DNA of 64,000 nucleotides from Anaerolineae bacterium (GTDB lineage Bacteria > Chloroflexota > Anaerolineae > VGOG01): NCBI GenBank assembly GCA_049589355.1, contig JBAWAP010000280.1, forward strand, positions 32 through 64,031, given 5' to 3'. Numbering within the stretch: position 1 is the first letter of the stretch; each line of letters begins with the position of its first letter. Positions 21,687 to 40,819 of this stretch are shown here, piece by piece. The notes below the pieces were generated by a model. It did no database searches. It saw only the letters and a program-made list of their open reading frames with translations, and had not been told where the DNA came from. The translations under genes were made by a program, and so were the position numbers.

Positions 21687-21718
21687 TACTTGAACCAGGC
21701 CGGTTTTTCTTTCTGGGC

Positions 21719-21747: not shown

Positions 21748-21914
21748 TAGTCGTGAAATCTTGGTTTTGCAGTTCGGTGAGGGGATTGGGATGGGGGGTG
21801 GGAGAACGCGATTGTCTTTCTCTGGACAAGAGCCGAGTTTTGCAGTATACTAAGCCTCAAATCACTCCCTCCAGCGCACGTTAGCATGGGGGAAAACACG
21901 CGAAGGAGTCAACA

Positions 21915-22565
21915 ATGAAGAAAGCCACATTGCTCGTAGTTCTCATGACACTACTGACTGCTTGTCAGCAGCTTCGGCCGACGCCGGAAATCGTCAGGGT
22001 CACAGTGCTGGTAACCCAACCGCCTCCAAAGCCGATTGAGGTCACGGTGCTTGTGACCCAGCCGCCCCTGCCTACGTATACTCCTTATCCTACTTATACC
22101 CCTTATCCAACTTGCCCACCACCCGCATCCACGCTTCAAGCTACTGAGACGCCAATTCTATCCACGCCCACTTCCCCGCCCACGGGGACACCAGTAGCTA
22201 CTTCCGCTCTTACTTCCACCCTTACTTCCACTCTTACACCCGAATCTCTTGCTGTGCCCATCTGCCCCAATCCTCTAGCCAGGCTCACTTATCCTATGGC
22301 GAACTCCGTTCTGAAGGGGGTTGTGGAAATCAGGGGCTCAGCGCACATTGACAATTTCGACTACTACAAGTTCGAGTTTCGCAGCAAGGGGGCGCTCGAC
22401 TGGGCTTTCGTGCAGAGCTTCAAGGACACGGTGGCTGATGGGCTCCTGGGTGTGTGGGACACTTCGTCTCTTCCCGCCGGCGCTTACAAGTTCCGCCTGG
22501 TCGTGGTGGACAAAATAGGCAATTACCCGAAGCCCTGTGAAGTGGACGTGACCATCGAGCACTGA
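21915..22565 (+). CDS. Hypothetical lipoprotein with Pro/Thr-rich repeats
   Basis: Signal peptide with lipobox LLTAC; internal repeats VTVLVTQPP, PYPTYTPYP. Confidence 0.6.
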   Translation: MKKATLLVVLMTLLTACQQLRPTPEIVRVTVLVTQPPPKPIEVTVLVTQPPLPTYTPYPTYTPYPTCPPPASTLQATETPILSTPTSPPTGTPVATSALTSTLTSTLTPESLAVPICPNPLARLTYPMANSVLKGVVEIRGSAHIDNFDYYKFEFRSKGALDWAFVQSFKDTVADGLLGVWDTSSLPAGAYKFRLVVVDKIGNYPKPCEVDVTIEH

Positions 22566-22611
22566 CCAGCCTCAGTGCCGTCTATTTGATTCTCCAGAAA
22601 GGCTACTCAGG

Positions 22612-22843
22612 CTGTCATTGCGAGTCGGCCATGGCGCGCCCCGCCATTCTAAAGGACAGAAACTTCATCATGTCATTGCGAGGCGACGGTTTTCCGCCGA
22701 AGCAATCCCCAATTAGCTACGTGGAGATTGCTTCGCTCCTGCGGGGCTCGCAATGACAGGTAAGTTTCTGAGTAGCGAAGCGAAGCAATCCCCAAGCCGC
22801 AAGGAGGAGATTGCTTCGTCGCAAAAAACGCTCCTCGCAATGA
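22612..22843. repeat. Composite of three nested/tandem GTCATTGCGAG-type MITE copies
   Basis: GTCATTGCGAG at 22613 and 22670; CTCGCAATGACA at 22747-22758 and 22832-22843. Confidence 0.8.
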
Positions 22844-22881
22844 CACGGGCTGAGCAGTTACCCGGAAAGGAGTGAAAGTAT

Positions 22882-23937
22882 ATGACCCTGGTAGAACGAG
22901 CCGAGGTCGAAGACGCTGTCTTGAAGATGCTCCGCGTTAATATGGGTCTCAAGACCGGTGAGCGGCTGCTCGTCGTCACCGACGTGCCCACCCTGGAACA
23001 ATGGACAACCGGCCCTCAACCCTTCCTGACACTGATGACCCAACGTGCCATGTTGGCCAAAACAGTGGCCGAGGTTGCCCAGGAGCTAATGGCAGGGGTG
23101 GAAGTGGGATTCTTGCCTTTCCCCTCCACGGGGCGCAACGCGGTGGAGCCACCAGCGGAGGTGGCCGAGCGCATGAAGGCTGCCGACGTGGTGATCATCA
23201 TCACCTCGTTCTCCCTCTCGCACACGGATGCTCGGGAAGAGGCGTGTCGCGCCGGGGCGCGCATTGCTTCTATGCCACGCTTTATCCCAGAGATGTTTTA
23301 TCCCGATGGGCCTATGGATGCCGACTACGGCGAGGTCAAACGACTCACCGGGCGCATCGCTGCGGCTCTGACGCCAGCGCGCCAGGTGCATGTCACCTGC
23401 CCGGCCGGGACGGACATCACGTTCAGCATCGAGGGCCGGCCAGGGCAGGTTGACGCCGGGATATACACCCAGCCGGGGATGTGGGGCAATCTGCCCGCGG
23501 GCGAGGCATACTGCGTGCCGCTGGAAGGCACTGGTCAGGGCGTGATCCAGGTCACCCCGGGCTGGCACGCCGATCTCACCGAGCCCATGGCCTTGGTCTT
23601 TGCCAGGGGTGGACTGGTCGAGCTACGGGGTGGCGGGACGGTGGGCGATCAGTTGCGCGACATTCTGCGGCCCGGGAATGATGCCGAGCCTTACAAATCG
23701 CGCCGTAACCTCGGCGAGTTTGGCATCGGCACCAACCCCAATGCCCGGCGGGTGGCCATCACCCTGGAGGCCGAAAAGATCAAGGGCACGGTCCACCTGG
23801 CCACGGGTGACAATGCCCACATGGGCGGCCTAGTCAATGCCGACTATCACCAGGATTTCGTCATCCCCAGGGCGAGTTTCACCCTGGATGGCCAGTTGGC
23901 CATGCAGGATGGGGAGATCGTGCTACGCGATACATGA
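22882..23937 (+). CDS. M29 (aminopeptidase T/S)-like protein, paralog 1
   Basis: ..CPAGTDITFSIEG.., ..LATGDNAHMGG.. resemble M29 family motifs. Confidence 0.5.
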   Translation: MTLVERAEVEDAVLKMLRVNMGLKTGERLLVVTDVPTLEQWTTGPQPFLTLMTQRAMLAKTVAEVAQELMAGVEVGFLPFPSTGRNAVEPPAEVAERMKAADVVIIITSFSLSHTDAREEACRAGARIASMPRFIPEMFYPDGPMDADYGEVKRLTGRIAAALTPARQVHVTCPAGTDITFSIEGRPGQVDAGIYTQPGMWGNLPAGEAYCVPLEGTGQGVIQVTPGWHADLTEPMALVFARGGLVELRGGGTVGDQLRDILRPGNDAEPYKSRRNLGEFGIGTNPNARRVAITLEAEKIKGTVHLATGDNAHMGGLVNADYHQDFVIPRASFTLDGQLAMQDGEIVLRDT

Positions 23938-27923: not shown

Positions 27924-28160
27924 ATGACACACGACCGCATTGAGGTAAATCCAGCAATCATGTTCGGCAAGCCGGTGATCAAAGGCACGCGCATCACCGT
28001 GGAGCATATCTTGCGCAAACTGGCCGGAGGGATGATGATTGACGAGATTCTGGCCGACCATCCGCACCTTACACCAGATGACATATATGCTGCCGCTGCC
28101 TTCGCGGCCGATTATCTGGCTCAGGAAGAGATCGTCTTCGCCGGTGGAGAGCGACTGTGA
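27924..28160 (+). CDS. DUF433-family protein (antitoxin-like partner of DUF5615)
   Basis: ..MFGKPVIKGTRITVEHIL.. typical DUF433. Confidence 0.7.
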   Translation: MTHDRIEVNPAIMFGKPVIKGTRITVEHILRKLAGGMMIDEILADHPHLTPDDIYAAAAFAADYLAQEEIVFAGGERL

Positions 28161-28300
28161 GATTCTTGGCCGACGAATGTTGCGATGCTGCTCTAGTGTA
28201 TGCCCTTCGCAGTGATGGTCACGACGTCTATGCTATCGAATCGCTGCGTGGCGCAACCGATGACGAACTCCTGGCTCGATCCTTATTTAGATTGAAATCA
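28157..28300 (+). pseudogene. DUF5615 (PIN-like) gene truncated after ~47 codons
   Basis: VRFLADECCDAALVYALRSDGHDVYAIESL.. matches the DUF5615 N-terminus, then a premature stop where the downstream terminator/promoter module begins. Confidence 0.6.
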
Positions 28301-28339
28301 TAAAAAAGCTAGAAATCATGAGAAATGCATGATCTTTCC

Positions 28340-28420
28340 ACCTATCAGAAGACCGACTTGGTTGAACCAGGTCGGTCTTTTGGTGTGGGTATTGCAAATC
28401 GCGCTCAGGCGTGGTATAAT
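28340..28420 (+). promoter_or_regulatory. Third copy of terminator-like hairpin + consensus promoter TTGCAA-17-TATAAT module, upstream of the DUF499 gene
   Basis: cagaagaccgacttggttgaaccaggtcggtctttt..ttgcaaatcgcgctcaggcgtggtataat. Confidence 0.7.
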
Positions 28421-28537
28421 ATGCATATAAGACAACCTGCCCGGTAGAGAGATGGGAAGCCAGCGGTAGGGATAGTCATAGGAAGTTGCCAAGGTAGAAC
28501 CCTGGGTGGGCTTTTGGGCTGAGAAGGGAGGGGTTCC

Positions 28538-31500
28538 ATGAGGACAATCTTCGACAGTTGTGAACCGCGATCCGAGGTTCTGAAAGGCGAGCTGCGAGAC
28601 GAAATCTTCGCGGCCCGGTTGAGAGATGTGATCATCGGCAAGGCCGATCCTGTCTATCAGGACCCTGTTATCTTCTTTGACAACACTTATCCCACCGAGG
28701 GCCTCAAGCTGCTGCTGGACGAAGGGCTGGGACGGCTGACTGGCCTCAAACCGGCCAGTAACGCCATCATCCGCCTAGAGACGGCCTTTGGCGGCGGCAA
28801 GACCCACAATCTAATCGCTCTCTACCATGCAACGATGGGCTATCGGCCCAGCGCCTCGCTGGTGGACACGGCACTCATTCCAATGCCGGGCTCCATCCAG
28901 GTGGTGGGCGTTGTTGGCTCGGACCTGCAGCCCTCGACGGGACTGGCTCACAACGGGTTCAGAACCTACACCCTCTGGGGTGAGATCGTTGCTCAGTTGA
29001 CCGATGACCAGGACCCCGCTCTGGTAGAACAAAGTGAGCGGGACAAGGTCGCCCCGGGCACCGGGCTGTGGGAGGAGTTGATCGGCGACGAACCCATGCT
29101 GATCATGCTGGACGAGATAGCCCGCCACCTGCGGGCAGCCAAGGCAGTGCCTACCACTACTGGCAAGTCGGACCTGGCTGAGCAGACGGTGGCCTTCCTC
29201 ATGTCCCTCTTCGAGTTCGCGGCCAGCAAGGAGCGAGTGGTGGTAGTCTACACCCTGGCCGATCCTCAAGATGCCTTCGGCAAGGAGACCGAGGAGCTGC
29301 GCCAGGAGCTGGCCGAAGCCAGGCGCGTCTCGGCGCGTCAGGAGCGTGTCATCACTCCTACAGGCGAGACCGAGATCTCGGCCATTGTCACCCACCGCCT
29401 GTTCCGACGCATAGATCACGCTGCTGGCCAGGCCACGGCTGCCGCCTACGCTGCCTACCTCAAGATGGCCCTGGATCAGAGCGCCGATCTACCCTCTCGG
29501 GCCGCCAGGGCCGAGTACGCCCAGGAGATGGTCAACGACTATCCCTTCCACCCCGAGCTACTGACTACCCTCAACCGCAAGACCTCGACCATTCCCAACT
29601 TTCAGAAGACCCGTGGCGCGCTGCGGCTGCTGGCCAGGGTGATCCGCCGCCTGTGGGAGAGGCGCCCGCCGGACGCTTACCTGATTCATCCCTATCACCT
29701 CGATCTGGCGGTGGAGGATATCGCTGGTGACTTGACCAGTCGCCTGGAGCGGCCGGCCTTTAAACAGGTGATCGAAGCGGACATCGTCAGTCCCAAGGCT
29801 GGCTCGCCAGCCCATGCCCAGTTGATTGACGTCTCCTGGCTGGAGGCCGGCAAACCGCCTTATGCTCGCCGCATCGCCACCACCGCCTTCTTGCACAGCC
29901 TGACCCAGGGCATCGCCACCGGAGTGGACCCGGCCGACCTGGCTCTGGCCGTGCTCCAGCCTGACGACGACCCCACCATGGTGGCCAAGGCTGCCGAGCG
30001 ACTGTACGACATCGGCTGGTTCTTCGAGTGGGATGGGCGCCGCTACCGCTTCAAGACCGAGCCGTCACTCAACAAGATTGTGACCGATGAGATGGGGTTG
30101 GTGGGACGTACCAAGGCCAAGGCTGAACTGGATGGGCGTATCCGTCAGGTGTGGAAAACGGGTTATTTCAAGCCGGCCTATTTCCCCAGCGAAGCCGGTG
30201 ACGTGGACGACGACGCCGACAAGCCCAAGTTGGTGGTCATCCACTACGACGCCGCCACCAGCAACGCTGGGGCAGCGGCTCCACCCGACCTGGTGCGCAA
30301 GATCTTCGACCACGCCGGGGCACTGCAGGGTTACCGTATCTATAAGAACAACGTCTTGTTCCTGGTGGCCGACGAAGACCAGGTGGAGAACATGGTGCAG
30401 GTAGCGCAGCGGTATCTGGCTATCGGGCGCATCACTGGCGACGCCGAGCGGATGGGGGAGTTCCACGAGGAGCAGCGCAAGAAGCTGAAGAAGATGGGCG
30501 AGGCCGCCGAGTTGGACGTGCGAGTGGCTATCACCAAAGCCTGTAAGTACCTCTACTATCCCAGTGCCGACGCCCCGCAGAAACACAGCAACCTGGCTCG
30601 CGAGACGCTACCCGCCCAGGATCAGGGTGAAGTCAACCAGGACCAGAGCAACGTGGTGCTGCGGGTGCTGAAGCAGTTGCAGAAGGTCCTGACAGCCGAC
30701 GATTCAACCCTGCCAGCCGCCTTTGTCAAGGCCAAAGCCTGGGATACGGGTCAGGCGAGCATGTCCACCGAGGATATGCGCCGTGCCTTCGCCCGCCGCA
30801 TGGGACTGCGCATCCTATTGGACCTGAACCAGCTCAAGAAGACCGTCCGCAACGGCATCAGCCAGGGCATCTGGGTCTACTACGACACGCCCGAACAGAT
30901 TGGCTACGGGCCGGAATCCCCAAGTCCCATGGTGCAGATCAGCGAGGATGTTCTCCTGTACACGCTGGAGGAAGCCAGACGGCTGGGGCTACGTATCAAA
31001 GGGGAGCGGGAAGAGGGCATTGGCCTTGAGGAGACTTGCCCTATCTGCCACCGGCCCGTCAGCCAGTGCATCTGTGGCCAGGCCTGTCCGGTGTGCGGGC
31101 AGGACCCGTGTGTCTGCGGAGTGAGGATCCGACTCCACGCCGATGGCGCGCCAGCCCAGGCTTTCCAGGGACTTCTCGATCAGTGTCACGACCAGGGTGT
31201 GACCAGCTTGGGCCGCCTCTTCGTGCGCATTGAGGGGAGGGACAGAGAGGGAGCGATGGAGGCCCGGGCCATGGGGCTGGCCATCCCCCAGTTGGGCAAG
31301 GGGCAATTCCGTGTAGAGCAGTCCTTCAACGCCGAGTTCGGCGAGGCCGAGTCACTGAGCCTGGTCTTTAACGGTGCTTGGGACCGCTACAAGCGGGTCA
31401 AGCAATTGACTGACGCCTTCGGCCACGAGGCCAGCAAGCTGTTGGCCAGGACCACTCTGCGGGCCGATTTCCCCGATGGCCTGGCCGTGGACTCAGACCA

Positions 31501-31588
31501 GTTCCAGACCATCCACGAGGTGTTCATCACGCTTGGCTTCGGGCACATGGTACTGGATGCGGAGCCGTGGATAGAAGAACACTCGTAG
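28538..31588 (+). CDS. DUF499-family P-loop ATPase (1016 aa), defence-island type
   Basis: N-terminus MRTIFDSCEPRSEVLKGELRDEIFAA.. and ..ETAFGGGKTHNL.. Walker A typical of DUF499; Cys-rich insert CPICHRPVSQCICGQACPVCGQDPCVCG near C-terminus. Confidence 0.7.
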   Translation: MRTIFDSCEPRSEVLKGELRDEIFAARLRDVIIGKADPVYQDPVIFFDNTYPTEGLKLLLDEGLGRLTGLKPASNAIIRLETAFGGGKTHNLIALYHATMGYRPSASLVDTALIPMPGSIQVVGVVGSDLQPSTGLAHNGFRTYTLWGEIVAQLTDDQDPALVEQSERDKVAPGTGLWEELIGDEPMLIMLDEIARHLRAAKAVPTTTGKSDLAEQTVAFLMSLFEFAASKERVVVVYTLADPQDAFGKETEELRQELAEARRVSARQERVITPTGETEISAIVTHRLFRRIDHAAGQATAAAYAAYLKMALDQSADLPSRAARAEYAQEMVNDYPFHPELLTTLNRKTSTIPNFQKTRGALRLLARVIRRLWERRPPDAYLIHPYHLDLAVEDIAGDLTSRLERPAFKQVIEADIVSPKAGSPAHAQLIDVSWLEAGKPPYARRIATTAFLHSLTQGIATGVDPADLALAVLQPDDDPTMVAKAAERLYDIGWFFEWDGRRYRFKTEPSLNKIVTDEMGLVGRTKAKAELDGRIRQVWKTGYFKPAYFPSEAGDVDDDADKPKLVVIHYDAATSNAGAAAPPDLVRKIFDHAGALQGYRIYKNNVLFLVADEDQVENMVQVAQRYLAIGRITGDAERMGEFHEEQRKKLKKMGEAAELDVRVAITKACKYLYYPSADAPQKHSNLARETLPAQDQGEVNQDQSNVVLRVLKQLQKVLTADDSTLPAAFVKAKAWDTGQASMSTEDMRRAFARRMGLRILLDLNQLKKTVRNGISQGIWVYYDTPEQIGYGPESPSPMVQISEDVLLYTLEEARRLGLRIKGEREEGIGLEETCPICHRPVSQCICGQACPVCGQDPCVCGVRIRLHADGAPAQAFQGLLDQCHDQGVTSLGRLFVRIEGRDREGAMEARAMGLAIPQLGKGQFRVEQSFNAEFGEAESLSLVFNGAWDRYKRVKQLTDAFGHEASKLLARTTLRADFPDGLAVDSDQFQTIHEVFITLGFGHMVLDAEPWIEEHS

Positions 31589-31640
31589 TAACGACTTTAG
31601 CTCGACATTGTTAAATTCGCTGTCGTAGCCAACAAAGGAT

Positions 31641-31852
31641 GTCATTGCGAGTCTTCCATGGCGCGGTGCGCCATCCGTAGGGGGCAGAAACTTGGGCGAG
31701 GTTCGTAGTAACAGCTTTAGCTGTCGTTTGGCAGCAAAGGCGACTAAAGTCGTCTACGAACCAAGTTTCTGAGTAGCGCAGCGAAGCAATCTCCCGCCTT
31801 CAAATGCAAGCAACGGTGGAGATTGCTTCGTCGCTGCGCTCCTCGCAATGAC
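31641..31852. repeat. GTCATTGCGAG-type MITE copy carrying an internal GTTCGTAGTAACAGCTTTAGC/GACTAAAGTCGTCTACGAAC palindrome; surrounded by further GTAGTAACGACTTTAGTC-type repeats (31592, 31893, 31935)
   Basis: Seen directly. Confidence 0.8.
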
Positions 31853-31968
31853 ACTTGGCCTGGAATCTAACAATGTCAAGTTAGTCGTTAATTGTGAACG
31901 ACTGAAGTCGTTACTACGGCGTTGCTACAACTTGTAGTAATGACTTTAGTCGTTCAAGGAGACCAAAT

Positions 31969-32898
31969 GTGAAGGCGCTTTCCATCCGCCAACCCTGGGC
32001 TGAGTTGATCCTCCAGGGACGCAAGACTATCGAACTGCGCACCTGGCCGACGAGCTACCGCGGCCGCATCGCCATCCATGCCAGCCAGACAGTTCGAGAG
32101 GAGGCTTGCATTGCCTATGGTCTGGATCCGGCCAGAATGGTGCGCGGCGCGCTGGTGGGCACGGTGGAACTGGTGGACGTTTTGCCGCTGGACGAGGCGG
32201 CATGGGAGGCTCTGCGCGATCAGCACCTGTCGTTGAGTGACTTCCCCGGCCCGATGTTCGGCTGGCGGCTGGAGGCCCCCCAACGCCTGCCCCAGCCGAT
32301 CCCCATGCGCGGCCGCATGAGCCTGTTTAATGTGGCCGATGAGGTGATAGCGGGAAAAGCACCACATTCCCCCCTCTCCCAGGGTTGGGAGAGGGGGCTA
32401 GGGGGTGAGGGCTTTGCGCCGCCCAAGGTGACCTATAACACGCGGGCCGATGCGCCGGCCTACGACCCTGAAAAACCCTTCGAGCTGTGGGTGGTTCCCT
32501 GCGATGGCGGCGACTATGGCCTGGCGTTGTATCAGTGGCCCGTGGCGGCCAATCGTGAGATCCCAAAGCCCCAGCGACTGGTGGAGCTGGCTGGCGATTC
32601 GCTGCGGGCTGTGGCCGACCACGTGCTGGAAGCGTTGCGCAAGAGTGACTATAAGGTGACCGACCTGTCTCACAACCGCCAAAAGCCCTTCCGCCTGGAC
32701 GAAGAGACGGGCTTGCGCCTGGGCCTGCTCTTTCTGGCTGTCAAACCATTGACCCGCATGGATCGCGTCGAGGCCATCTCTAGCGGCTTACGCACCATGC
32801 CGTCCGAGGAAGCCTACTATTGGTTCAGCAAGTGCACCGCTGAGGCGAGCGCTGTCAATGCCCAGCGGGCGCTGCGAATTTTGTTGGCTGGAGAGTGA
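31969..32898 (+). CDS. ASCH (PUA-like) domain protein with ~190-aa uncharacterized C-terminal region
   Basis: ..LSIRQPWAELILQGRKTIELRTW.. ASCH signature; GTG start with AAGGAGA RBS. Confidence 0.7.
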   Translation: MKALSIRQPWAELILQGRKTIELRTWPTSYRGRIAIHASQTVREEACIAYGLDPARMVRGALVGTVELVDVLPLDEAAWEALRDQHLSLSDFPGPMFGWRLEAPQRLPQPIPMRGRMSLFNVADEVIAGKAPHSPLSQGWERGLGGEGFAPPKVTYNTRADAPAYDPEKPFELWVVPCDGGDYGLALYQWPVAANREIPKPQRLVELAGDSLRAVADHVLEALRKSDYKVTDLSHNRQKPFRLDEETGLRLGLLFLAVKPLTRMDRVEAISSGLRTMPSEEAYYWFSKCTAEASAVNAQRALRILLAGE

Positions 32899-32969
32899 AG
32901 TGAAGGGAATGACCTGTCCGCTCCCCTGGAGTGTGAGTAGTGAAGTGTTGTTAAATTAAGGAGGATGAT

Positions 32970-33221
32970 ATGTCTGAGCTTTATTCTGTAACCGGCACCC
33001 TGTCGGATGAGCAAACAGTCATACTGGACAGACCTATTCCTCTGCCCATTGGTCGCGTGCGCTTGACCGTTGAAACGTTGCCCGCTGCCAAGCCTGATAG
33101 AACATTCCTCAGCAAGCTGCAGGCAATTCGCCAGGCTCTGCGCGCTAGCGGCTATCGCCCCTGCACCAGAGAAGAAATTGATGCGCAGACTACGCGCCCG
33201 CTATCGCTTCAGAACCCCTGA
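32970..33221 (+). CDS. Hypothetical small protein (83 aa)
   Basis: ORF with RBS GGAGGA; no family recognised. Confidence 0.4.
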   Translation: MSELYSVTGTLSDEQTVILDRPIPLPIGRVRLTVETLPAAKPDRTFLSKLQAIRQALRASGYRPCTREEIDAQTTRPLSLQNP

Positions 33222-33235
33222 CGCAGGAGGCGCAG

Positions 33236-36200
33236 ATGAACCCACCCCCCACCCTCATCGAATCCTGGCTGCCCTTCGAAGCCATTGGCGCGGAGAGCCA
33301 GCGCGAGCGGGGCGCCAGCAGCGCCTTGCCGCCGCTGTACTTCTTGCACGTCTGGTGGGCGCGCCGCCCGCTGACGGTGAGCCGTGCCGCAGTGCTGGCT
33401 GGCCTCTTGCCAGACTTCCGAAGTCTTGGAGACTTCGGAAGTCTCGACCTGCGCCAGAAGTTCCCTACCGAAGAGGCGTACCGCGCCTGGTTCACCCGCC
33501 TGCTGGGCATCCTGGGTGACCCGGTGACTGGCCGCAAGCTGCTTGCGCGTGCCCGTCAGGTCGGAAAGAAGATCCCCAACCCCTACGAGCACGGCCGGGC
33601 GTTCACGTACAATCCCCCGGCTGAGGAACTGGAAACAATGCTCGACCTGCTGGAGCAGGCATGGGGCACCCGCGAGATCACGGTCATGGATCCCATGGCC
33701 GGCGGAGGCTCCATCCCCTTCGAAGCCCTACGCTATGGCTTCACCGTGCTGGCTGGCGAATTGAACCCGGTCGCCGCGGTTATCCTCAAAGCCACCCTGG
33801 ACTACCCGGCTCGCTTCGGCCCGGCCCTGGCCGACGACATCCGCAGGTGGGGCAAGCGTTGGTACGAGTTGGTCAAACCCAGGCTGGAACCCTACTTCAC
33901 GCCGTTGCCACCAGGGGCTGAAGGCGCTGCCTACCTATGGGCGCGCACCGTCGCCTGCCCGACGACCGGCAAGCTGGTGCCTCTTTCCCCCAACTGGTGG
34001 CTGAGCAAGGGCAGCGACCTCGTGGCTGTGCGCCTGCTCACCAACCCCGCCTGGGACGAGCCACGCTTCGAGATCGTGCGCGGCTCTCCCCTCTCCCTGC
34101 CAGGGAGAGGGGCCGGGGGTGAGGGTTGGACCTTCGACCCCGACGAGGGCACAGTTAGCCGAGGGGTGGGACGCTCTCCCTGGACGGGCGAAGCCATTGA
34201 CGGCGACTACATCAAACGAGAGGCTCAGGCCGGCCGCATGGGGCAGATGCTGTACGCCGTGGCGGTGAAGAAGCCTGGTGGTTTCGACTTCCGCCCACAC
34301 ACAGAGGAGGACCTGGCCGCCGTCCGTCGCGCCGAGGCCGCCTTGGCCGAGAACCTGCCCCGCTGGGAGGCGGCCGGGTTGGTGCCGCGAGAGCCGTTCC
34401 CCGGCGGCAACGACCCCCGCCCACTGCTCTACGGCATGCCCACCTGGGCCGACTTCTTCTCTCCCCGCCAACTCCTCTCCCTGGTCACCTTCCTGGGGGC
34501 GCTGCGGGAGGTGGGTGCGGAGATGCGGCGGGAGATGGATGAGGAGCGGGCCGAGGCGGTGGAGACGTATTTGGCCTTTGCGCTGAACAAATGCCCAAAC
34601 TATAGCTCACGAATGTCGGTATGGCATCCGCTGCGTACCTCAATGGCAAATACCTTCAACCGCCATGACTTTAGCTTTGCTTGGAGTCATGGCGAGTTTG
34701 ATGCTGCTCACAACTTGCTACCCTGGGCTGTCAGCCAGATAGAGGATGCCTACAAAGGCCTGGCCATACTGACTGTTTCTGCCCAGATCCCTCTGTGGGG
34801 CAGTGATGGCGGCTCGCCCGTCGAGCGACTGCAAATCTGGCAGGGCTCAGCCACTGACCTCAGCCAAGTTGAGAGCTGCTCCGTCCACCACATCTGCGTG
34901 GACCCGCCCTACTATGACAACGTCATGTACGCTGAGCTCAGCGACTTCTTCTACGTCTGGCTCAAACGCAGTGTGGGCCACCTGTACCCCGAATTCTTCC
35001 GCGATACTTTGACCAATAAGGACGACGAAGCAGTGGCCAACCCCGCCCGCTTCAAGGCCCTCGCTTCCCCCTCTCCCGCTTCCCCCCTAAGGTTGGGGGG
35101 GACCGTGGGGGGGCGGAGAGGGGGGCAGGGGGTGAGGGACCTGGCCAAACGGGACTACGAACGCAAGATGGCCGCTTGCTTCCGCGAGATGCACCGCACC
35201 TTGCGCGACGACGGCGTGTTGACCGTCATGTTCACCCACAAGCAGGTGGAGGCCTGGGATACCCTGGCCACCGCGCTCATCGGCGCCGGCTTCACCATCA
35301 AAGCCTCCTGGCCTGTCCACACCGAGTCCGAGCACTCCCTGCACCAGGCCCAGAAGAACGCCGCTGCCAGTACCATCCTGCTGGTCTGCCGCAAACGAGC
35401 AGACAAGGAGACAAGGGGACAAGGAGACAGAGAGACAATCTCCGTGTCTCCCCCTCACCTTGTCTCCCCCTCTCAAGTGTGGTGGGATGACATCAAGGGC
35501 CGGGTGCGGCAGGTGGCACGGGAGAAGGCGGCTGAGTTCGCTGAACAGGGTGTCAGCGGGGTGGACCTGTACATCAGCACCTTCGGCCCTGTCCTGTCTG
35601 TCATCTCCGAGCGCTGGCCGGTGCTGACCAGCGAGGTGGATGAAAAGACAGGCCAGCCTAAGCCCCTACGCCCCGAAACCGCCCTTGACCTGGCCCGCGA
35701 GGAGGTCATCGCCCTGCGCAAGCGAGGACTGCTGCTGGGACGGGATATCCAGTTCGACCCCGTCACCGACTGGTACCTGATGGCCTGGGATGCCTTCAAA
35801 GCCGAGGAGTTCCCCGCCGACGAGGCGCGCAAGCTGGCCATCGCCCTGGGGTTGGACATCGAGGAGGACCTGGTGCGGCGCAAGCGGGTCATCGGCAAGA
35901 AGGGCAGCTTTGTGGTGCTGCAACAGCCCAAACACCGCCGCCGCAAGCACCTGGCCGACCCTGAGGCTGTGGTCTTCGACACCCTCCTGGACGCCGCCCA
36001 CGCCGCCATGCTCATCTACCACGAAGATGGGCCACTGGCCTGTGAAAGCTTCCTCAAGCGCACTGGCCTGCTGACCGACAGCACCTTCAAGGCCTGCCTC
36101 CAGGCCCTGCTCAACGCCATCCCCCGCACCCAGATCAAGGGCAGATTCGTCCGCCCCGAAGCCGACCTCCTGGAGCGTCTGCGAATGGCCTTCTTTGAGG

Positions 36201-36265
36201 ATTTGGAGGTGCCGGTGGAGGAGGAGGCGGGGGCGGTCATACAACAGCTAGGGTTGGACATCTAG
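33236..36265 (+). CDS. DUF1156-family adenine-specific DNA methyltransferase-like protein (1009 aa)
   Basis: N-terminus ..LIESWLPFEAIGAESQRER..LHVWWARRPL.. (DUF1156 hallmark); DPPY motif (..HHICVDPPYYDNVMY..) at ~34901. Confidence 0.75.
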   Translation: MNPPPTLIESWLPFEAIGAESQRERGASSALPPLYFLHVWWARRPLTVSRAAVLAGLLPDFRSLGDFGSLDLRQKFPTEEAYRAWFTRLLGILGDPVTGRKLLARARQVGKKIPNPYEHGRAFTYNPPAEELETMLDLLEQAWGTREITVMDPMAGGGSIPFEALRYGFTVLAGELNPVAAVILKATLDYPARFGPALADDIRRWGKRWYELVKPRLEPYFTPLPPGAEGAAYLWARTVACPTTGKLVPLSPNWWLSKGSDLVAVRLLTNPAWDEPRFEIVRGSPLSLPGRGAGGEGWTFDPDEGTVSRGVGRSPWTGEAIDGDYIKREAQAGRMGQMLYAVAVKKPGGFDFRPHTEEDLAAVRRAEAALAENLPRWEAAGLVPREPFPGGNDPRPLLYGMPTWADFFSPRQLLSLVTFLGALREVGAEMRREMDEERAEAVETYLAFALNKCPNYSSRMSVWHPLRTSMANTFNRHDFSFAWSHGEFDAAHNLLPWAVSQIEDAYKGLAILTVSAQIPLWGSDGGSPVERLQIWQGSATDLSQVESCSVHHICVDPPYYDNVMYAELSDFFYVWLKRSVGHLYPEFFRDTLTNKDDEAVANPARFKALASPSPASPLRLGGTVGGRRGGQGVRDLAKRDYERKMAACFREMHRTLRDDGVLTVMFTHKQVEAWDTLATALIGAGFTIKASWPVHTESEHSLHQAQKNAAASTILLVCRKRADKETRGQGDRETISVSPPHLVSPSQVWWDDIKGRVRQVAREKAAEFAEQGVSGVDLYISTFGPVLSVISERWPVLTSEVDEKTGQPKPLRPETALDLAREEVIALRKRGLLLGRDIQFDPVTDWYLMAWDAFKAEEFPADEARKLAIALGLDIEEDLVRRKRVIGKKGSFVVLQQPKHRRRKHLADPEAVVFDTLLDAAHAAMLIYHEDGPLACESFLKRTGLLTDSTFKACLQALLNAIPRTQIKGRFVRPEADLLERLRMAFFEDLEVPVEEEAGAVIQQLGLDI

Positions 36266-36292
36266 ATCGAACCGAGAAAGGAGTTCACACTG

Positions 36293-36667
36293 ATGACAGA
36301 GCATAAGGTGTTGATACCGGACCAGATGTTTGCTGAATTGATGCCGATATCGGAGCAGGAAGACAAAGAAATCAGCGATCTGGTTATAGAAGCATTGCAG
36401 CGGTATCTTTGGGAGGCCAAAGAACGCAAGATTGACCGGGAAATGGAGGCGTACCGTATGATGCACGCCGAACTGAAAGGACGTTTCCTAGGCGAGTACG
36501 TAGCTATTCACAATGGCGAGTTGGTGGATCACGACACTGATCGCCGTGCCCTGTCTCGACGGGTGCGACGAGAATACGGGAACACGGTAGTGCTCATCAC
36601 CCCCGTCGAGGATGAGCCAGAACGGGAGTTCTTGATGCTGAGTCCTCGATTTGAACGAGGTGTATGA
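36293..36667 (+). CDS. Small protein, DUF5678-like C-terminal domain (124 aa)
   Basis: ..YVAIHNGELVDHDTDRRALSRRVRREYGNTVVLI..; overlaps next gene by 4 bp. Confidence 0.45.
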   Translation: MTEHKVLIPDQMFAELMPISEQEDKEISDLVIEALQRYLWEAKERKIDREMEAYRMMHAELKGRFLGEYVAIHNGELVDHDTDRRALSRRVRREYGNTVVLITPVEDEPEREFLMLSPRFERGV

Positions 36668-37050
36668 TGCGATATCCTTACGACAGTCGTTACCATCCTC
36701 CGATGCCGGTTGTTGAGGTTGCTTTAGGCGTATCAGAGGGCGATTTCCCGTTGGAGCCGCTTCCTAGCATCATAGATACCGGCGCAGACATCACGATCGT
36801 GCCCAGGGAATACCTAATGCGCCTGGATGCACCGGTTGTTGCCAGTGGGTATCTGCGCAGCCCGTGGGGAGGCCGATCCAGTGTCAAGATATACGAAGTC
36901 AACGTGCGTGTCGGGGAACATGACCTGTATGGTGTTGAAGTTGCGGGTGAACCAGGCGGGCGCGAAGTGTTGTTGGGACGTAACTTGTTGAACCAGTTGG
37001 ATCTACGACTGGATGGGCCGAATGAGACCGTGGTTGTATTGTCAGGTTAG
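36664..37050 (+). CDS. Retropepsin-like (clan AA) aspartic protease, 128 aa
   Basis: ..SIIDTGADITIVP.. D-T/S-G-A active-site motif. Confidence 0.65.
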   Translation: MMRYPYDSRYHPPMPVVEVALGVSEGDFPLEPLPSIIDTGADITIVPREYLMRLDAPVVASGYLRSPWGGRSSVKIYEVNVRVGEHDLYGVEVAGEPGGREVLLGRNLLNQLDLRLDGPNETVVVLSG

Positions 37051-37078
37051 CTAGAGTATCTGTCCAAGAAGACCAACG

Positions 37079-40000
37079 ATGAGACTTCGCGATCATGACT
37101 TCCAGATTTCTTATGGCCCGGCCGATGACCGGCTCCACGACTTCTACATTCCGGCCCTGTCGTGCAGTCTGCGCTACGACCGCACGGCTGGCTTCTTTAG
37201 TAGCAGTGCCTTGGCCGTGGCGGCCGCTGGCGTGGCCCGGCTCATCGCCCAGGGCGGTACCATGCGCCTGCTGGTCGGTGCCCAACTGAGCGAAGCCGAC
37301 GTCCGTGCCATCGAGCGAGGACAGGCGTTGGACGAGGTCGTGGCCGAGCGACTGATCGCAGCCCTCAGCGAGCCCGAGGAAGAAGTCATGCAGCGCCGCC
37401 TGGAGGTGCTGGCCTGGATGGTCGCCGCAGGCAGGCTCCAAATCCGCGTCGTGCTCCCAAAAGGACCCGATGGTCACCCCCTTCCTGCATCCGAGGCCCA
37501 GGACTACTATCACCCCAAAGAGGGCCTCTTCACCGACCACTACGGCGACCAAATTGCCTTCAGCGGCAGCATTAACGAATCGGCCATTGGTTGGCAGCGC
37601 AATTATGAGCAGTTCTCCGTCTACTTCTCGTGGAACGCCACGGCTCCATACCTGGCCCAGGTGCGCTATCGGTTCGAGCATCTGTGGAATGGGCAGGAGC
37701 CGGACTGGATTGCGATGGACGTTCCCGAAGCGGCGCGGCAGCAGTTGCTTCGCTATCGCCCGGCCACGGCTCCTACCTGCGACCCGCTGGAGCGCGAACC
37801 GAAACCCAAGGTGGTCGAGCGTCCGGGCGTTTTCGTGCCTGAATTGCAGCATGAGCGTGTCCTCTTCCAGTTCCTGCGCGATGCTCCCCGTCTCCTCAAC
37901 GCCCGATGGCTGGGCGCGGCAACCAGCGCTGTCACTCCGTGGCCCCACCAGGCGCGCATTGCCGATACCATCGTCACCCGTTTCCCGGAGCGCTTCCTGC
38001 TTTGCGACGAGGTCGGCCTCGGAAAAACCATCGAGGCTGGCCTGGTGCTGCGTCAGCTCCTCTTGTCGGGCTACGTTCGCCGTTGCCTGATCCTGGCCCC
38101 TAAATCCGTCTGCCGCCAATGGCAGGAGGAACTCTACGAGAAGTTCGCCCTCAACGTCCCCTTCTTCGATGGCCACACCTTCCGTGACGTGTTCGGCCAG
38201 GAGCATACGCCGGACGTTCCTAACCCCTGGGACGCCGAGGACGTATTCATCGCCTCCAGCCAACTGGCTAAACGGCGCGAGCGCCAGCCGGATCTGTTGG
38301 CAGCTCGCCCGTGGGATCTGATCATCGTGGACGAGGCGCACCACGCCCGTCGCAAGGACTTTCTGGTTCCCCGCTACCGGCCCAACCGTCTGCTGGAGTT
38401 GCTGATGGGACAGGATGAACAGCCCGGGCTGAAAGATCGCACACTGAGCTTGCTCTTGATGACTGCTACTCCCATGCAGATCCATCCGGTGGAAGTGTGG
38501 GACCTGTTGCGGGTCCTCGGCCTGGGCGGTCGTTGGGGTGCTGACGATAGCAACTTCCTGCGCTTCTTCCAGGAGCTGCGTCGGCCTTTCGACGACGCGG
38601 ATTGGGATTTCGTCTTCGGCATGGTGCGCGATTTCCTGGATACGGGCGGGGAACTCGATCCGACATTTGCCAGTCAGGCCGAGGCCAAACTTGGCCTGGT
38701 GGATTGGCAGCGGTTCAAGATGCTGATATCACCTCAGGAACACGAAGCCAGACCCAAGCAGTTGTTGGCTAAGAATCGTGCCCTGGTGATAGAAATGACC
38801 CGCCGGCATACTCCACTGCGCCGGTATCTCTTTCGCAGCACCCGCCGCCTGCTCCGGGAGTACGTGCAGCGGGGCATTCTCAAGGCCAACGTGCCCCATC
38901 GGGACCCTGAGCCAGTCTGGATTGCGATGCGTGCTGACGAGCAGGATCTCTACCACCGGATCGAGGAGTACATCACCCATTTCTACCGAAAGTATGAGGC
39001 GGAGCGCAAGGGGTTGGGCTTCATTATGACCGTTTACCGGCGCCGGTTGACCAGCAGCTTCTATGCGGTGCGCCGCAGCCTGGAGCGGCGATTGGACTTC
39101 TTACGTGGCCAGACTGCCCCTGGCACGATAGCAGGCTTTGATGAAGACGACCTGGAGCAGGAAGACCTGACCCAGGACATCAGCGAGGAACTGGAAGCAG
39201 AGGAAAGGTCCCGCTTCCGTGGCGAGATCGAATACGTTGAGGATTTCCTGGCCGCGCTGCGCAGCTTGAGTGGCAACGATTCCAAGGTCGAGCAGTTGTT
39301 GGCTGACCTGGAGGAAATCTTCAAACGGCGCGAGACGGTCCTCATTTTCACCCACTACACCGACACGATGGACTTCCTACGCGAACAACTGCGGCAGGCA
39401 TACGGCAGCCAGGTGGCTTGCTATAGCGGACGGGGGGGCGAGGTGTGGAACGGCATCGCCTGGGTGCCGACGACCAAGGAGGAAATCAAGAACGCTTTTC
39501 GCCAAGGCGAGGCGATCAAGATTCTCCTTGGCACCGAGGCGGCCAGCGAGGGGTTGAACCTGCAAACCTGTGGTGTGTTGATCAACTACGACATGCCCTG
39601 GAACCCCATGCGGGTCGAGCAACGGATCGGCCGCATTGACCGCATCGGCCAGATGCACAAAAGGGTCTGGATTCGCCACTATTTCTACGAGGACACGGTG
39701 GAGGCCAGGGTCTACCGAGCGTTGGAGGATCGGATCGGTTGGTTTGAAGAAGTCGTCGGTGAGTTGCAGCCGATCCTTGCTCGAATAGGACAAGCCATCC
39801 AGAGCGCGGCCATGACGCCAGTGGCCGAGCGGGAGCAGGTGTTGACGCGAGAGTTGGAACAGCTACGGGAAGGGGCAGACACCCGACAGGCCGAGGGCCT
39901 TGACTTGGAGCAGTACCTGATCGCTGATGAGCCGTTGCTGGAGTCCACTTCTCCCGTCACCCTGAGCGACCTGGAGCGGGTGCTCACGCGGACATCGTCC

Positions 40001-40819
40001 CTGGTGGATCGTTTCCAACCGCATCCAAAATTCAAGCGGGCCTACTGGCTACGAACCGATGAGGGTGGCGCGGCTGTGACCTTCGACGTGGCCTTGTTTG
40101 ATGCCCACCCCAACACCTTGCGGTTGCTCACGTACGGAAGTGAGCTGCTGACGGCCCTGCTGAAGGCTGTGTCGGAGCCGGCTTCTGGCCCTGAGGGGCG
40201 TGTGCTACGCTGTTGGACGGAAGGCCCCCTGCCTCTTTGCGGCTACTACACCCTTGGCGCCAAGGGTCGCCCGCAGCGGATTGAGCGCCTGGCGGACCTC
40301 GAAGTACTCTATGCTGCGGACCCACATGCGCATTGGTCGGAAGAAGCCATAGCAACAGCGCGCGCCGACTTTCGGCGAGAGGTGGAGACACTGGTGCAGC
40401 GACGGGCGCAGGTGATCGCAGGCCGGCGGCGAGCAGAGCGTCTGGCGCTGGAGGAGCAAGCGCGCCAGACGCTGCTCCAGGCAGCGCTGGTAGAGCTGGC
40501 CATGGGGCAGCAACTCCAACTGTTCGCGGAAGAAGCACTGCCTGTGGCCTTCACCGAGGAAGCGATCACCGGCCTCAAGCGCCATGGTTATCCCTTTGCA
40601 CCATTGCTCAGGCTAGTCAATGTGGATGGCTTGCGGCCCAGCCCCACCGACCCGTTTTACACCGCGGTGCAGGGTAAATCACGAGAAGCCCTCAGGGGCC
40701 ACTTCAACGCGCTGCGGGACGAAGCAGTCCGGCTCTTGGGCCTGCTGGCAAGTGCTCCGGATCAGGAGGAGTCCTCCCAGGACATACAGGATGTCGTTGT
40801 GCAGACATTAGTAGTTTGA
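37079..40819 (+). CDS. PLD-like nuclease domain fused to SNF2-family helicase (1246 aa) with ~370-aa uncharacterized C-terminal region
   Basis: N-terminal HxK(x4)D (..HPKEGLFTD..), ATPase motif I ..LCDEVGLGKTIEAG.., motif II ..IIVDEAHHARR.., helicase-C ..LNLQTCGVLINYDMPWNP..QRIGRIDRIGQ.. Confidence 0.8.
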   Translation: MRLRDHDFQISYGPADDRLHDFYIPALSCSLRYDRTAGFFSSSALAVAAAGVARLIAQGGTMRLLVGAQLSEADVRAIERGQALDEVVAERLIAALSEPEEEVMQRRLEVLAWMVAAGRLQIRVVLPKGPDGHPLPASEAQDYYHPKEGLFTDHYGDQIAFSGSINESAIGWQRNYEQFSVYFSWNATAPYLAQVRYRFEHLWNGQEPDWIAMDVPEAARQQLLRYRPATAPTCDPLEREPKPKVVERPGVFVPELQHERVLFQFLRDAPRLLNARWLGAATSAVTPWPHQARIADTIVTRFPERFLLCDEVGLGKTIEAGLVLRQLLLSGYVRRCLILAPKSVCRQWQEELYEKFALNVPFFDGHTFRDVFGQEHTPDVPNPWDAEDVFIASSQLAKRRERQPDLLAARPWDLIIVDEAHHARRKDFLVPRYRPNRLLELLMGQDEQPGLKDRTLSLLLMTATPMQIHPVEVWDLLRVLGLGGRWGADDSNFLRFFQELRRPFDDADWDFVFGMVRDFLDTGGELDPTFASQAEAKLGLVDWQRFKMLISPQEHEARPKQLLAKNRALVIEMTRRHTPLRRYLFRSTRRLLREYVQRGILKANVPHRDPEPVWIAMRADEQDLYHRIEEYITHFYRKYEAERKGLGFIMTVYRRRLTSSFYAVRRSLERRLDFLRGQTAPGTIAGFDEDDLEQEDLTQDISEELEAEERSRFRGEIEYVEDFLAALRSLSGNDSKVEQLLADLEEIFKRRETVLIFTHYTDTMDFLREQLRQAYGSQVACYSGRGGEVWNGIAWVPTTKEEIKNAFRQGEAIKILLGTEAASEGLNLQTCGVLINYDMPWNPMRVEQRIGRIDRIGQMHKRVWIRHYFYEDTVEARVYRALEDRIGWFEEVVGELQPILARIGQAIQSAAMTPVAEREQVLTRELEQLREGADTRQAEGLDLEQYLIADEPLLESTSPVTLSDLERVLTRTSSLVDRFQPHPKFKRAYWLRTDEGGAAVTFDVALFDAHPNTLRLLTYGSELLTALLKAVSEPASGPEGRVLRCWTEGPLPLCGYYTLGAKGRPQRIERLADLEVLYAADPHAHWSEEAIATARADFRREVETLVQRRAQVIAGRRRAERLALEEQARQTLLQAALVELAMGQQLQLFAEEALPVAFTEEAITGLKRHGYPFAPLLRLVNVDGLRPSPTDPFYTAVQGKSREALRGHFNALRDEAVRLLGLLASAPDQEESSQDIQDVVVQTLVV

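Follow-up and report, generated by a model that had tools for sequence, protein, structure and literature searches.

A probable Type-2 BR defence operon with an ASCH–DUF7680 protein and an embedded, mobile DUF5678/retropepsin gene pair

Results

Identity of the locus

The locus described here, part of a 64-kb window (the whole stretch of Anaerolineae DNA that was analysed), is in our assessment, at a probability of roughly three in four, a DUF499-centred Type-2 BR (BREX-related, also called Hma-like) defence operon of restriction-modification-like (RM-like) character with an ASCH–DUF7680 protein, to which a DUF5678/retropepsin gene pair, the one unusual feature, has been added as mobile cargo resembling a type II toxin–antitoxin (TA) or abortive-infection module. 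Its clade, mostly of Chloroflexota, has a small protein that joins DUF7680 to ASCH. An ORF check of 28538-40819 returned six genes, all on the + strand and with exactly the boundaries of the first-pass annotation (Table 1). That annotation had seen in them a novel unit of five to six genes with the helicase–methylase–ATPase logic of Hma and BREX; the operon and its logic stand, but its novelty and its extent of five to six genes do not.

Table 1. Features of the locus and its left flank (window coordinates)
Feature	Coordinates	Strand	Remarks
Left flank: DUF433 antitoxin-like gene and cut DUF5615 PIN-like toxin gene	27924..28303	+	
Terminator-like hairpin and TTGCAA-N17-TGGTATAAT promoter element	28346..28421	+	5' of operon
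DUF499 ORC/Cdc6-like AAA+ ATPase (HmaC / BR ATPase)	28538..31588	+	1016 aa
MITE/REP-like repeat nest	31584..31918	.	between DUF499 and ASCH-DUF7680 genes
ASCH, disordered linker and DUF7680 fusion protein	31969..32898	+	309 aa, GTG start
DUF1156 N6-adenine DNA methyltransferase (HmaB / BR MTase)	33236..36265	+	1009 aa
DUF5678 small protein, putative antitoxin/regulator	36293..36667	+	124 aa, cassette gene 1
Retropepsin-like (clan AA) aspartic protease, putative toxin/effector	36664..37050	+	128 aa, cassette gene 2
HKD (PLD-family)-SNF2 helicase fusion, predicted restriction effector	37079..40819	+	1246 aa

Domains and motifs of the core proteins

Searches against Pfam, PADLOC and NCBIfam models bore out the DUF499, ASCH, DUF1156, DUF5678, retropepsin and SNF2 calls that had been made from the letters of the DNA, and the WWARRP, DPPY, GGGKT (Walker A), DEAH and DTGA motifs are all present. 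The ATPase matched Pfam DUF499 (2.6e-35), PADLOC HmaC (3.3e-96) and DUF499 (3e-58), and NCBIfam DUF499_antiphage (1.2e-78); its Walker A and Walker B (LIMLDE) motifs lie at residues 85-89 and 188-193, and Pfam found no N-terminal HEPN domain on it. The methylase carries DUF1156 at residues 11-62 (Pfam 3.6e-16) and matched PADLOC HmaB (2.8e-74) and DUF1156_MTase (8.6e-45) as well as NCBIfam DUF1156_antiphage (8.9e-65, under the cut-off), with WWARRP at 40-45, motif I (DPMAGGGS) at 152-159 and motif IV (DPPY) at 556-559. The helicase consists of an N-terminal HKD nuclease, a complete SNF2 core (Pfam SNF2-rel_dom 2.6e-14, Helicase_C 1.4e-18) with the full set of motifs (GLGKT 313, DEAH 418, TATP 462, QRIGRIDRIGQ 848), and a C-terminal extension. 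Its PLD region matched Pfam PLDc_2 only weakly (0.0056, below the cut-off). The PLD call is nevertheless backed by NCBIfam phospholipD_antiphage (3.1e-113) and by PADLOC PbeA and PLD_Helicase, all three of which take in the N-terminus, and by the motif HPKEGLFTD (145-153) followed by GSIN (163), within 145-166. The other PADLOC matches were BrxHI, DrmD and HmaA.

The equivalog cut-offs of the NCBIfam anti-phage trio NF042962, NF042963 and NF042964 were missed by the ATPase (265 versus 1200 bits), the methylase (219 versus 1000) and the helicase (380 versus 1100). The core proteins are homologues of the trio from a divergent sister clade. Neither PglZ nor NOV_C (PF13020, at E<=0.01) was matched by Pfam on the locus proteins, PglZ was absent from the locus and its flanks by Pfam and PADLOC, and with the same two libraries neither the six proteins nor those encoded next to them matched iSTAND or an N-terminal HEPN. 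The earlier statement that the locus has no PglZ or BrxL holds.

The ASCH–DUF7680 protein

The protein between ATPase and methylase combines ASCH (5e-9), a PUA-like modified-base reader fold, with DUF7680 (2.6e-39), a domain that the first-pass annotation had missed. DUF7680 is the component of this operon in the DUF3780 position: comparison with locus L021 places both domains at a common point of the operon. The AF2 models of the two share an identical order of secondary-structure elements (b1-b2-b3-a1-b4-a2-a3-a4-a5), and their profile–profile comparison was non-significant (probability 0.07-0.2%). DUF7680 looks like the functional equivalent of DUF3780, and probably its structural equivalent too, and annotation pipelines could therefore label its clade BR/Hma-like. 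This clade is large, with members in Chloroflexota and Planctomycetota and on plasmids of Rhodococcus, Sinorhizobium and Nostoc. In Type-2 BR, a standalone DUF3780 protein is found within the locus in 98% of taxa, and a subset is fused to ASCH/PUA or RAMA (PMC12839542); a reader of this kind joined to a DUF3780-type component had thus already been mentioned, contrary to the claim that the ASCH protein belongs to no described version.

Comparison with known systems

The closest match is Type-2 BR as described by Rakesh & Krishnan (NAR 2026, PMC12839542). The likeness extends to a DUF499 ATPase that lacks HEPN, a DUF1156-type N6-methylase, a SNF2 helicase with an N-terminal HKD endonuclease (instead of TUDOR), a small alpha+beta protein between ATPase and methylase that is ASCH/PUA-fused in a subset, the lack of PglZ, and auxiliary genes embedded in the locus. 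The differences are the Pfam assignment of the small protein (DUF3780 there, DUF7680 here) and the scores of the present proteins, well under the thresholds of the DUF3780-type NCBIfam trio. In the same classification, PglZ and iSTAND define Type 3 BR, and an N-terminal HEPN on the ATPase is common in Type 1 (PMC12839542).

Hma (PADLOC, Payne et al. 2021; HmaA tested in Halomonas, PMC11232893), the equivalent of Type-1 BR, shares the helicase, methylase and DUF499 ATPase, with HmaA, HmaB and HmaC all matching here, and likewise has other defence genes placed inside the operon (PMC11232893). In HmaA, however, the nuclease is a NOV_C PD-(D/E)xK nickase at the C-terminus, and HKD is missing, whereas the present helicase has the HKD domain at its N-terminus and no NOV_C match, which sets the locus apart from Hma and Type-1 BR; Hma also lacks the DUF3780/DUF7680 gene. 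The COG1743-DUF499-SWI2/SNF2-nuclease operon of Bell, Wolf & Koonin (2020, PMC7641849) has the same three enzymes, with a PD-(D/E)xK or PLDc nuclease, and an associated PUA-like modified-base reader. There, mostly in archaea, an EVE protein encoded on its own serves as the reader, in contrast to the ASCH–DUF7680 fusion of Chloroflexota. Type 3 BREX (BrxC, PglXI, BrxHII, PglZ) has ATPase, methylase and helicase modules homologous to those found here, and in PADLOC the locus matches PglXI weakly and BrxHI/BrxHII strongly, but it lacks PglZ, BrxA and BrxB/F, its ATPase is of the DUF499 type and its effector is an HKD–helicase fusion. BREX types 1-6, which are recognised by PglZ together with a BrxC/PglY ATPase, were rejected for the missing PglZ. 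DISARM, which requires DrmA (a DUF1998 helicase) and DrmB with DrmC (PLD) or DrmD/E, was also rejected: by PADLOC, only the SNF2 core matches DrmD models, and there is no DrmA- or DrmB-specific partner gene.

These comparisons bear on the idea that all six genes together make up a defence system not described before and separate from BREX, DISARM and Hma. The missed equivalog cut-offs speak for it, as do the finding of DUF7680 in no paper of the literature searched and the silence of the BR survey and its supplements (PMC12839542) on the DUF5678/retropepsin pair. Yet the four-gene core agrees point by point with the Type-2 BR architecture as published, the ASCH fusion is on record, and conservation of the core does not extend to the pair (see below). 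The PLD–SNF2 fusion, also put forward as new, is a described core component (NF042964; PADLOC PLD_Helicase; Type-2 BR, PMC12839542), known in COG1743/DUF499 operons since 2020 (PMC7641849). With the subtype described and its components annotated, the novelty of the four-gene core falls, and the new-system reading is largely refuted and now very improbable. The core is one more example of the widespread Type-2 BR and introduces no new principle.

Conserved gene order and cargo slots

We surveyed 80 genome loci found via the DUF7680 protein. DUF499 lies upstream of the DUF7680 gene in 78 of the 80; downstream, DUF1156 was seen in 64/80 and the helicase in 48/80, the remainder being lost to contig ends, and the gene order was constant in all 80. 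Co-localisation of the core genes, as had been proposed, is thus far above chance, and a conserved unit exists; it comprises four genes, not five to six. Plasmids of Rhodococcus, Sinorhizobium and Nostoc carry the four genes in this order too, there with DUF7680 as a protein of its own. Both intergenic slots are cargo hotspots in the DUF7680 clade. Slot 1 is filled in 49/64 loci, and slot 2, between methylase and helicase, exceeds 300 bp in 28/47, with contents that include PhdYefM, PIN, DUF4258, OLD-type ATPases, UvrD, IS200, Schlafen, GmrSD and a C39-like peptidase; on the Nostoc plasmid pTCL26-01_C, slot 2 holds an antitoxin and VapC pair. At these filling rates, the slots are search sites for new accessory defence genes.

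Proposed working of the operon

The protein families present, together with published work, lead us to infer the following scheme. The DUF1156 methylase would place m6A at a specific motif of the host's DNA, the DUF499 ATPase, which is ORC/Cdc6-like, would assemble and scan on DNA, the ASCH–DUF7680 protein would read the modification status, and the HKD–SNF2 protein would translocate along unmarked invading DNA and cut it. The DUF5678/retropepsin cassette would have landed in the methylase–helicase slot, which in relatives accommodates other TA pairs, auxiliary nucleases and IS elements.

Alternatively, the operon might serve as an epigenetic or chromatin-type module that regulates host genes through orphan-like methylation and a SNF2 remodeller, with defence not its primary role. 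No experiment on any Type-2 BR system, and no direct phage-defence data for this type, turned up in the literature searched, and over-expression of HmaB left T4 susceptibility unchanged in the Hma study (PMC11232893). We nonetheless give this alternative very little credence: the helicase carries a fused and intact HKD nuclease motif, the system is plasmid-borne in some organisms with a genomic neighbourhood that differs from relative to relative, its slots hold embedded defence and TA cargo, and the Type-1 homologue HmaA, the only helicase–nuclease of this family with a demonstrated anti-phage role, restricts T4 (PMC11232893).

The DUF5678/retropepsin pair

The two cassette genes overlap by 4 nt. 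The 124-aa protein ends in DUF5678 (Pfam 2e-5, just over the gathering score) and has 943 cluster representatives at E<=1e-3; its residues 2-50, a possible RHH-like segment, weakly match the RHH antitoxin EndoAI (4me7, E 0.16), and Pfam matched no RHH domain in it. Its partner matched Pfam RVP (6.4e-5, over the gathering score) and gag-asp_proteas (3.5e-6), and NCBIfam TIGR03698 below the cut-off (2.7e-5). DTGA (38-41) and GRN (105-107) align to HIV-1 protease, and DTGA is kept in every intact copy; the catalytic motif of the present protein is intact. Both genes are strongly conserved.

The first-pass annotation counted the pair into the unit, but the pair does not vary together with the core. 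It occurs in 0/80 survey loci and was found in seven further contexts. Intact copies lie in another BR locus (L105), in two operons of Type III-like RM systems and in two metabolic operons (one for sugar metabolism, the other beside ParE); in an AbiE/OLD island the cassette is recombined with a DUF433-DUF5615 TA pair. The cassettes are 77-82% identical in nucleotides across contexts, and homology ends at the gene borders. The pair is thus self-contained, horizontally mobile cargo outside the core machine. By context and gene organisation it behaves like a type II TA or abortive-infection module: in common with TA cassettes of defence operons (e.g. the Nostoc antitoxin/VapC pair), it consists of two small, co-oriented, overlapping genes that move as a unit between unrelated loci, occupy the methylase–helicase slot and recombine with the DUF433-DUF5615 pair. 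It differs in its putative toxin, a retropepsin-like aspartic protease being no documented TA toxin class in the literature searched. The cassette is accordingly a small, clean candidate for a protease-based TA/Abi module. It is possible, at well under even odds, that it represents a new mobile module in which a homodimeric retroviral-type aspartic protease is checked by the small partner, and which settles preferentially in RM-like operons (BR, Type III RM) and in TA/Abi islands, where it would provide a backup through abortive infection.

Defence or TA loci make up five of the seven further contexts, and the pair occupies one and the same slot in two BR loci, so that some functional link with RM-like systems is conceivable. 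The pair could then be an accessory of such systems, acting as a C-protein-like controller that postpones expression of the nuclease encoded downstream, or as a reserve effector of abortive infection for when a phage blocks the main system. It stands directly upstream of the restriction-side gene in the two BR loci (the present locus, L106, and the second, L105), and in the two Type III-like RM operons it lies directly upstream of the methylase and overlaps it; the BR survey argues that auxiliary or backup effectors embedded in the locus are a repeated trait of BR/BREX (NAR 2026, PMC12839542), small retropepsin proteins are reported beside Type III CRISPR loci in Sulfolobales, and the conservation of both genes agrees with such a role. 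Its absence from all 80 related BR loci surveyed, its presence among metabolic genes, its recombination with another TA pair, and the fact that relatives carry unrelated TA pairs and IS200 elements at this position make this unlikely, and we favour mobile cargo.

Repeats and left flank

In relatives the DUF499 and ASCH–DUF7680 genes abut or overlap (median gap 14 bp, n=75). The MITE/REP-like nest that parts them here is a secondary insertion outside the defence system, bounded by a 17-nt inverted repeat (31584-31600 / 31902-31918) and with inner segments 79-100% identical to 22600-22850. The promoter 5' of the operon (score 10/12 in a promoter scan, extended -10) had been taken for a transplanted cassette. 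It lies in one of three copies of a 76-nt hairpin-and-promoter repeat in the window (19705-19780, 21674-21749 and 28346-28421, the latter two at 83% identity), and the TGGTATAAT-type motif occurs six times against 0.2 expected; the element is a dispersed host repeat, not specific to the island. The tRNA anchoring proposed for the region was not confirmed: the tRNA-Asp gene is 9 kb away on the upstream side, and metabolic genes intervene. The truncated gene reported next to the island is real: behind a DUF433 gene (27924-28160, Pfam 3.5e-25), a DUF5615 toxin gene (28157-28300, then a stop; Pfam 2.2e-6) covers profile positions 1-43 of 110 and is cut after about 41, at about 28282, which marks the island's left edge.

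Composition of the operon and its place among described systems

The island (28340-40819) lies on a contig from an Anaerolineae (Chloroflexota) metagenome-assembled genome, and its six co-oriented ORFs sit exactly where the first-pass annotation had placed them. Searches with Pfam, PADLOC and NCBIfam bore out the domain assignments of all six proteins (see the table), and added the C-terminal DUF7680 domain of the 309-residue ASCH protein, which had gone unrecognised. The PLD match of the helicase is weak in Pfam; this part of the protein is backed by the NCBIfam model phospholipD_antiphage (3.1e-113) and by PADLOC PbeA/PLD_Helicase. The catalytic motifs of the ATPase, methylase, helicase and protease are all intact.

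Features of the operon, its surroundings and related loci (window positions unless a locus is named)
Feature	Position	Matches or content	Motifs or elements
DUF499 ATPase, 1016 aa		Pfam DUF499, 2.6e-35; PADLOC HmaC, 3.3e-96	Walker A GGGKT; Walker B LIMLDE
ASCH-DUF7680 protein, 309 aa		ASCH, N-terminal, 5e-9; Pfam DUF7680, C-terminal, 2.6e-39	
Methylase, 1009 aa		DUF1156 at start; PADLOC HmaB, DUF1156_MTase	DPMAGGGS; DPPY
Small protein, 124 aa	36293-37050 (with protease)	DUF5678, 2e-5	
Protease, 128 aa	36293-37050 (with small protein)	retroviral and gag aspartyl protease models	DTGA; GRN
Helicase, 1246 aa		SNF2, Helicase_C	nuclease part HPKEGLFTD...GSIN; SNF2 part GLGKT, DEAH, TATP, QRIGRIDRIGQ
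76-nt repeat, three copies	19705-19780; 21674-21749; 28346-28421	61-83% identical to reference copy	hairpin + TTGCAA-N17-TGGTATAAT
DUF433-DUF5615 pair	27924-28303	toxin-antitoxin (TA) pair cut by left edge of island	
MITE/REP-like nest	31584-31918	380-bp DUF499-ASCH gap	hairpins GTAGTAACGACTTTAG; arms TGTCATTGCGAG...CTCGCAATGACA
Further MITE/REP-like copy	22600-22850	9 kb upstream	
Long imperfect inverted repeat	22671-22845		
83-aa ORF in slot 1	32970-33221		
tRNA-Asp to metabolic genes	19800-23937	five ORFs, 101-351 aa	
tmRNA gene	49103-49468	tag peptide GEPQLALAA	
Slot-1 insert, 7.7 kb	L003 10985-18625	HTH_GRAD/GrpE-like protein, HSP70, pentapeptide-repeat protein, three uncharacterised proteins	
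Slot-2 pair	L001 10531-11308; L081 15467-16319	121 aa + 151 aa, C39-like cysteine peptidase	
Repeats in slot 2	L024 14330-14560	related to MITE/REP-like nest	
Chimeric ORF (protein P0161)	L107 7001-7450	first ~80 retropepsin residues joined to C-terminal part of DUF433 protein; DUF5615 next	DTGA included

A COG1743 - DUF499 - SWI2/SNF2-nuclease operon was described by Bell, Wolf and Koonin in 2020 (PMC7641849), its nuclease being of the PD-(D/E)xK or PLDc type and PUA-like EVE readers being associated with it. PADLOC uses the name Hma (helicase-methylase-ATPase) for the PD-(D/E)xK version and includes separate DUF499, DUF1156_MTase and PLD_Helicase models too, and NCBIfam covers the trio of DUF499, DUF1156 and PLD-helicase proteins with three consecutive models labelled "anti-phage". 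The HmaA protein of Halomonas restricts T4 via a NOV_C nickase (PMC11232893). Such operons are classed by Rakesh and Krishnan (NAR 2026, PMC12839542) as BREX-Related (BR) systems, in which Type 1 has a helicase with a C-terminal REase and an ATPase often with HEPN, Type 2 has a helicase with an N-terminal HKD and a standalone DUF3780 gene (fused in a subset to ASCH/PUA or RAMA), and Type 3 has PglZ and iSTAND and is devoid of a nuclease; auxiliary effectors embedded in BR loci are reported there as well. The window core matches every feature of Type 2, the sole difference being that Pfam labels the small protein DUF7680 and not DUF3780. We read the locus, with a probability of roughly three in four, as a Type-2 BR or Hma-like system of an ASCH-DUF7680 clade, its cargo being an uncharacterised cassette built around a retropepsin. 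The earlier observation is thereby confirmed, and the interpretation given to it is supported in part.

DUF7680 is probably a divergent DUF3780-like domain. The two domains hold the same position in the operon (locus L021 is the canonical example of the DUF3780 arrangement), and the order of secondary-structure elements in their AlphaFold models is identical (three strands, then a helix, one more strand and four helices). There is no Pfam cross-match between them, and hhalign was not significant (0.07% and 0.2% probability) in runs with a single sequence and then with profiles of 67 and 119 sequences. The weak alignment is collinear with the secondary-structure elements and pairs the conserved motifs LGLLFLAV/LVLLAWAI, EEAYYW/EERWWL and RALRiLLA/KAVRFALT. 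The NAR 2026 supplements contain no DUF7680, ASCH, retropepsin or DUF5678 entries and no EEAYYW motif, and our literature search on DUF7680 found nothing relevant.

A four-gene core with two cargo slots

The six proteins of the window were used to score six-frame translations of 80 genome loci with ASCH-DUF7680 relatives. In 78 of the 80 loci a DUF499 homolog is encoded upstream of the DUF7680 gene, and a DUF1156 homolog (64/80) and an HKD-SNF2 helicase (48/80) follow downstream; where either is missing a contig end intervenes, and the gene order is invariant throughout. Neither the DUF5678 protein nor the retropepsin has a homolog in any of these loci (phmmer, E<=1e-3). Since the other four genes are kept, the conserved unit comprises four genes and not six: the five to six genes taken for one unit in the first-pass annotation are indeed co-oriented, but the small-gene/protease pair does not co-vary with the core. 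The ASCH fusion is present in 64 loci; the remaining 16, from Planctomycetota, Dehalococcoidia and deltaproteobacterial MAGs, have DUF7680 alone. On annotated Rhodococcus, Sinorhizobium and Nostoc plasmids the four genes recur, the DUF7680 protein there being standalone and 160 aa long. The system is thus mobile, the operons of relatives lying in differing neighbourhoods and on plasmids.

The DUF499 and DUF7680 genes usually abut (median gap 14 bp, n=75). The next two junctions are cargo slots. Slot 1, between DUF7680 and DUF1156, has a median gap of 1546 bp and exceeds 300 bp in 49/64 loci; slot 2, between DUF1156 and the helicase, has a median of 680 bp and exceeds 300 bp in 28/47. In the window they measure 337 and 813 bp, slot 1 being essentially empty and slot 2 being occupied by the DUF5678/retropepsin pair. 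Among the 42 ORFs of slot-2 cargo in relatives are PhdYefM antitoxins, PIN and PIN_3 toxins, DUF4258, OLD-type ABC ATPases with UvrD helicase, IS200 transposases, a Schlafen/AlbA_2 protein, GmrSD and a C39-like peptidase, and a Nostoc plasmid has an annotated antitoxin and VapC pair in exactly this slot. Slot-1 cargo is as heterogeneous (116 ORFs, 51 of them singletons; recognisable members are OLD-TOPRIM, GmrSD and HNH). A hidden core component in this cargo was ruled out, as the largest family occurs in only 7 of 49 loci. The slot-1 insert of the related BR operon in L003 (Anaerolineae MAG JAHDWA010000032.1) amounts to a chaperone-type module inside a defence operon. Slot 1 of the window contains an 83-aa ORF with no Pfam match and without homologs among the loci fetched; it is probably an orphan or does not code for protein. 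In its N-terminal half it may loosely resemble short antitoxin sequences of the AF2212/DUF104 type.

The DUF5678/retropepsin cassette

The two genes travel together as a mobile cassette. The window retropepsin has 48 close homologs, and their contigs carry the same pair of genes (124 aa and 127-136 aa), overlapping in every case. Besides a sister strain of the window genome (L106; 7.4 kb aligned at 99.96% nucleotide identity), the pair is found in slot 2 of a second BR locus, where an IS200 gene follows it (L104/L105), directly upstream of the methylase in two different Type III-like restriction-modification (RM) operons (L013-L017), next to a ParE pair in metabolic surroundings (L011), within a sugar-metabolism operon (L103), and in an AbiE/OLD-ATPase island (L107), where recombination between the protease gene and a DUF433-DUF5615 TA pair has produced a chimeric ORF. 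The L107 island also has AbiEi/AbiEii and an OLD-like ATPase. Among the cassettes, the nucleotide sequences are similar (77-82%) from a point about 15-28 bp ahead of the first gene up to the stop codon of the second gene. Both proteins show good conservation, and no intact copy lacks the catalytic DTGA.

The small protein is a member of a sizeable family with 943 representatives of 50%-identity clusters (E<=1e-3), mostly of 120-130 aa, and its N-terminus weakly resembles an RHH antitoxin (E 0.16). Literature searches on DUF5678 function and on retropepsin-like toxin-antitoxin modules found nothing relevant. In its distribution and gene organisation the pair behaves like a type II TA-like or Abi-like module. 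A functional, if looser, link of the pair to RM-like systems is possible, because defence or TA loci account for five of the seven further contexts. As cargo of the BR operon, the retropepsin cassette is the sole element of the locus that might repay experimental work.

Another small-protein and small-peptidase pair occupies slot 2 in L001 and L081, which are close relatives of the window operon. The L001 proteins are not homologs of the window pair, and the presence of two unrelated pairs of this kind in one slot is a curious parallel.

Proposed mechanism

From what is known of these families and from the papers cited here, the DUF1156 methylase would mark self DNA with m6A and the ORC/Cdc6-like ATPase would scan DNA or assemble the complex. 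ASCH-DUF7680 would read the modification status, and the helicase, translocating at the expense of ATP, would cleave unmarked DNA with its HKD nuclease. The pair could have a TA-like or abortive role, with a putative toxic activity in the retropepsin dimer and the small protein as putative inhibitor or autoregulator.

Surroundings, repeats and mobility

The truncated gene reported beside the island proved to be a DUF5615 (PIN-like) toxin, which follows a DUF433 antitoxin-like gene and is truncated after about 41 of 110 profile positions (about residue 42), exactly at the left edge. The presence of DUF433-DUF5615 there, together with recombination of this TA type with the retropepsin cassette in L107, points to TA cassettes as sites of recombination. 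On the right, 84 bp separate the helicase stop from moeA and mobB. The island had also been called tRNA-anchored, which does not hold: tRNA-Asp is 9 kb away, with the metabolic genes DUF1177, AroM and a 3-hydroxyisobutyrate-dehydrogenase-like gene in between. The five ORFs between tRNA-Asp and these genes have no Pfam match (E<=0.001), no integrase or att-like repeat was found at the window locus, and a compositional anomaly was rejected, the GC content of the island (0.59-0.64) being that of the upstream flank.

The promoter cassette described ahead of the operon is real but not special, being one of three copies of a 76-nt terminator/promoter repeat in the window, the first of which abuts tRNA-Asp. 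The extended -10 motif occurs 6 times in the window against 0.2 expected. In this genome the repeat appears to be a promoter element that is mobile or recombinogenic. A nest of MITE/REP-like repeats makes up the unusual spacing that separates the DUF499 gene from the ASCH gene, and slot 2 of L024, a related Anaerolineae locus, is occupied by repeats akin to these. Elsewhere in the window, the GC skew changes sign near 50 kb.
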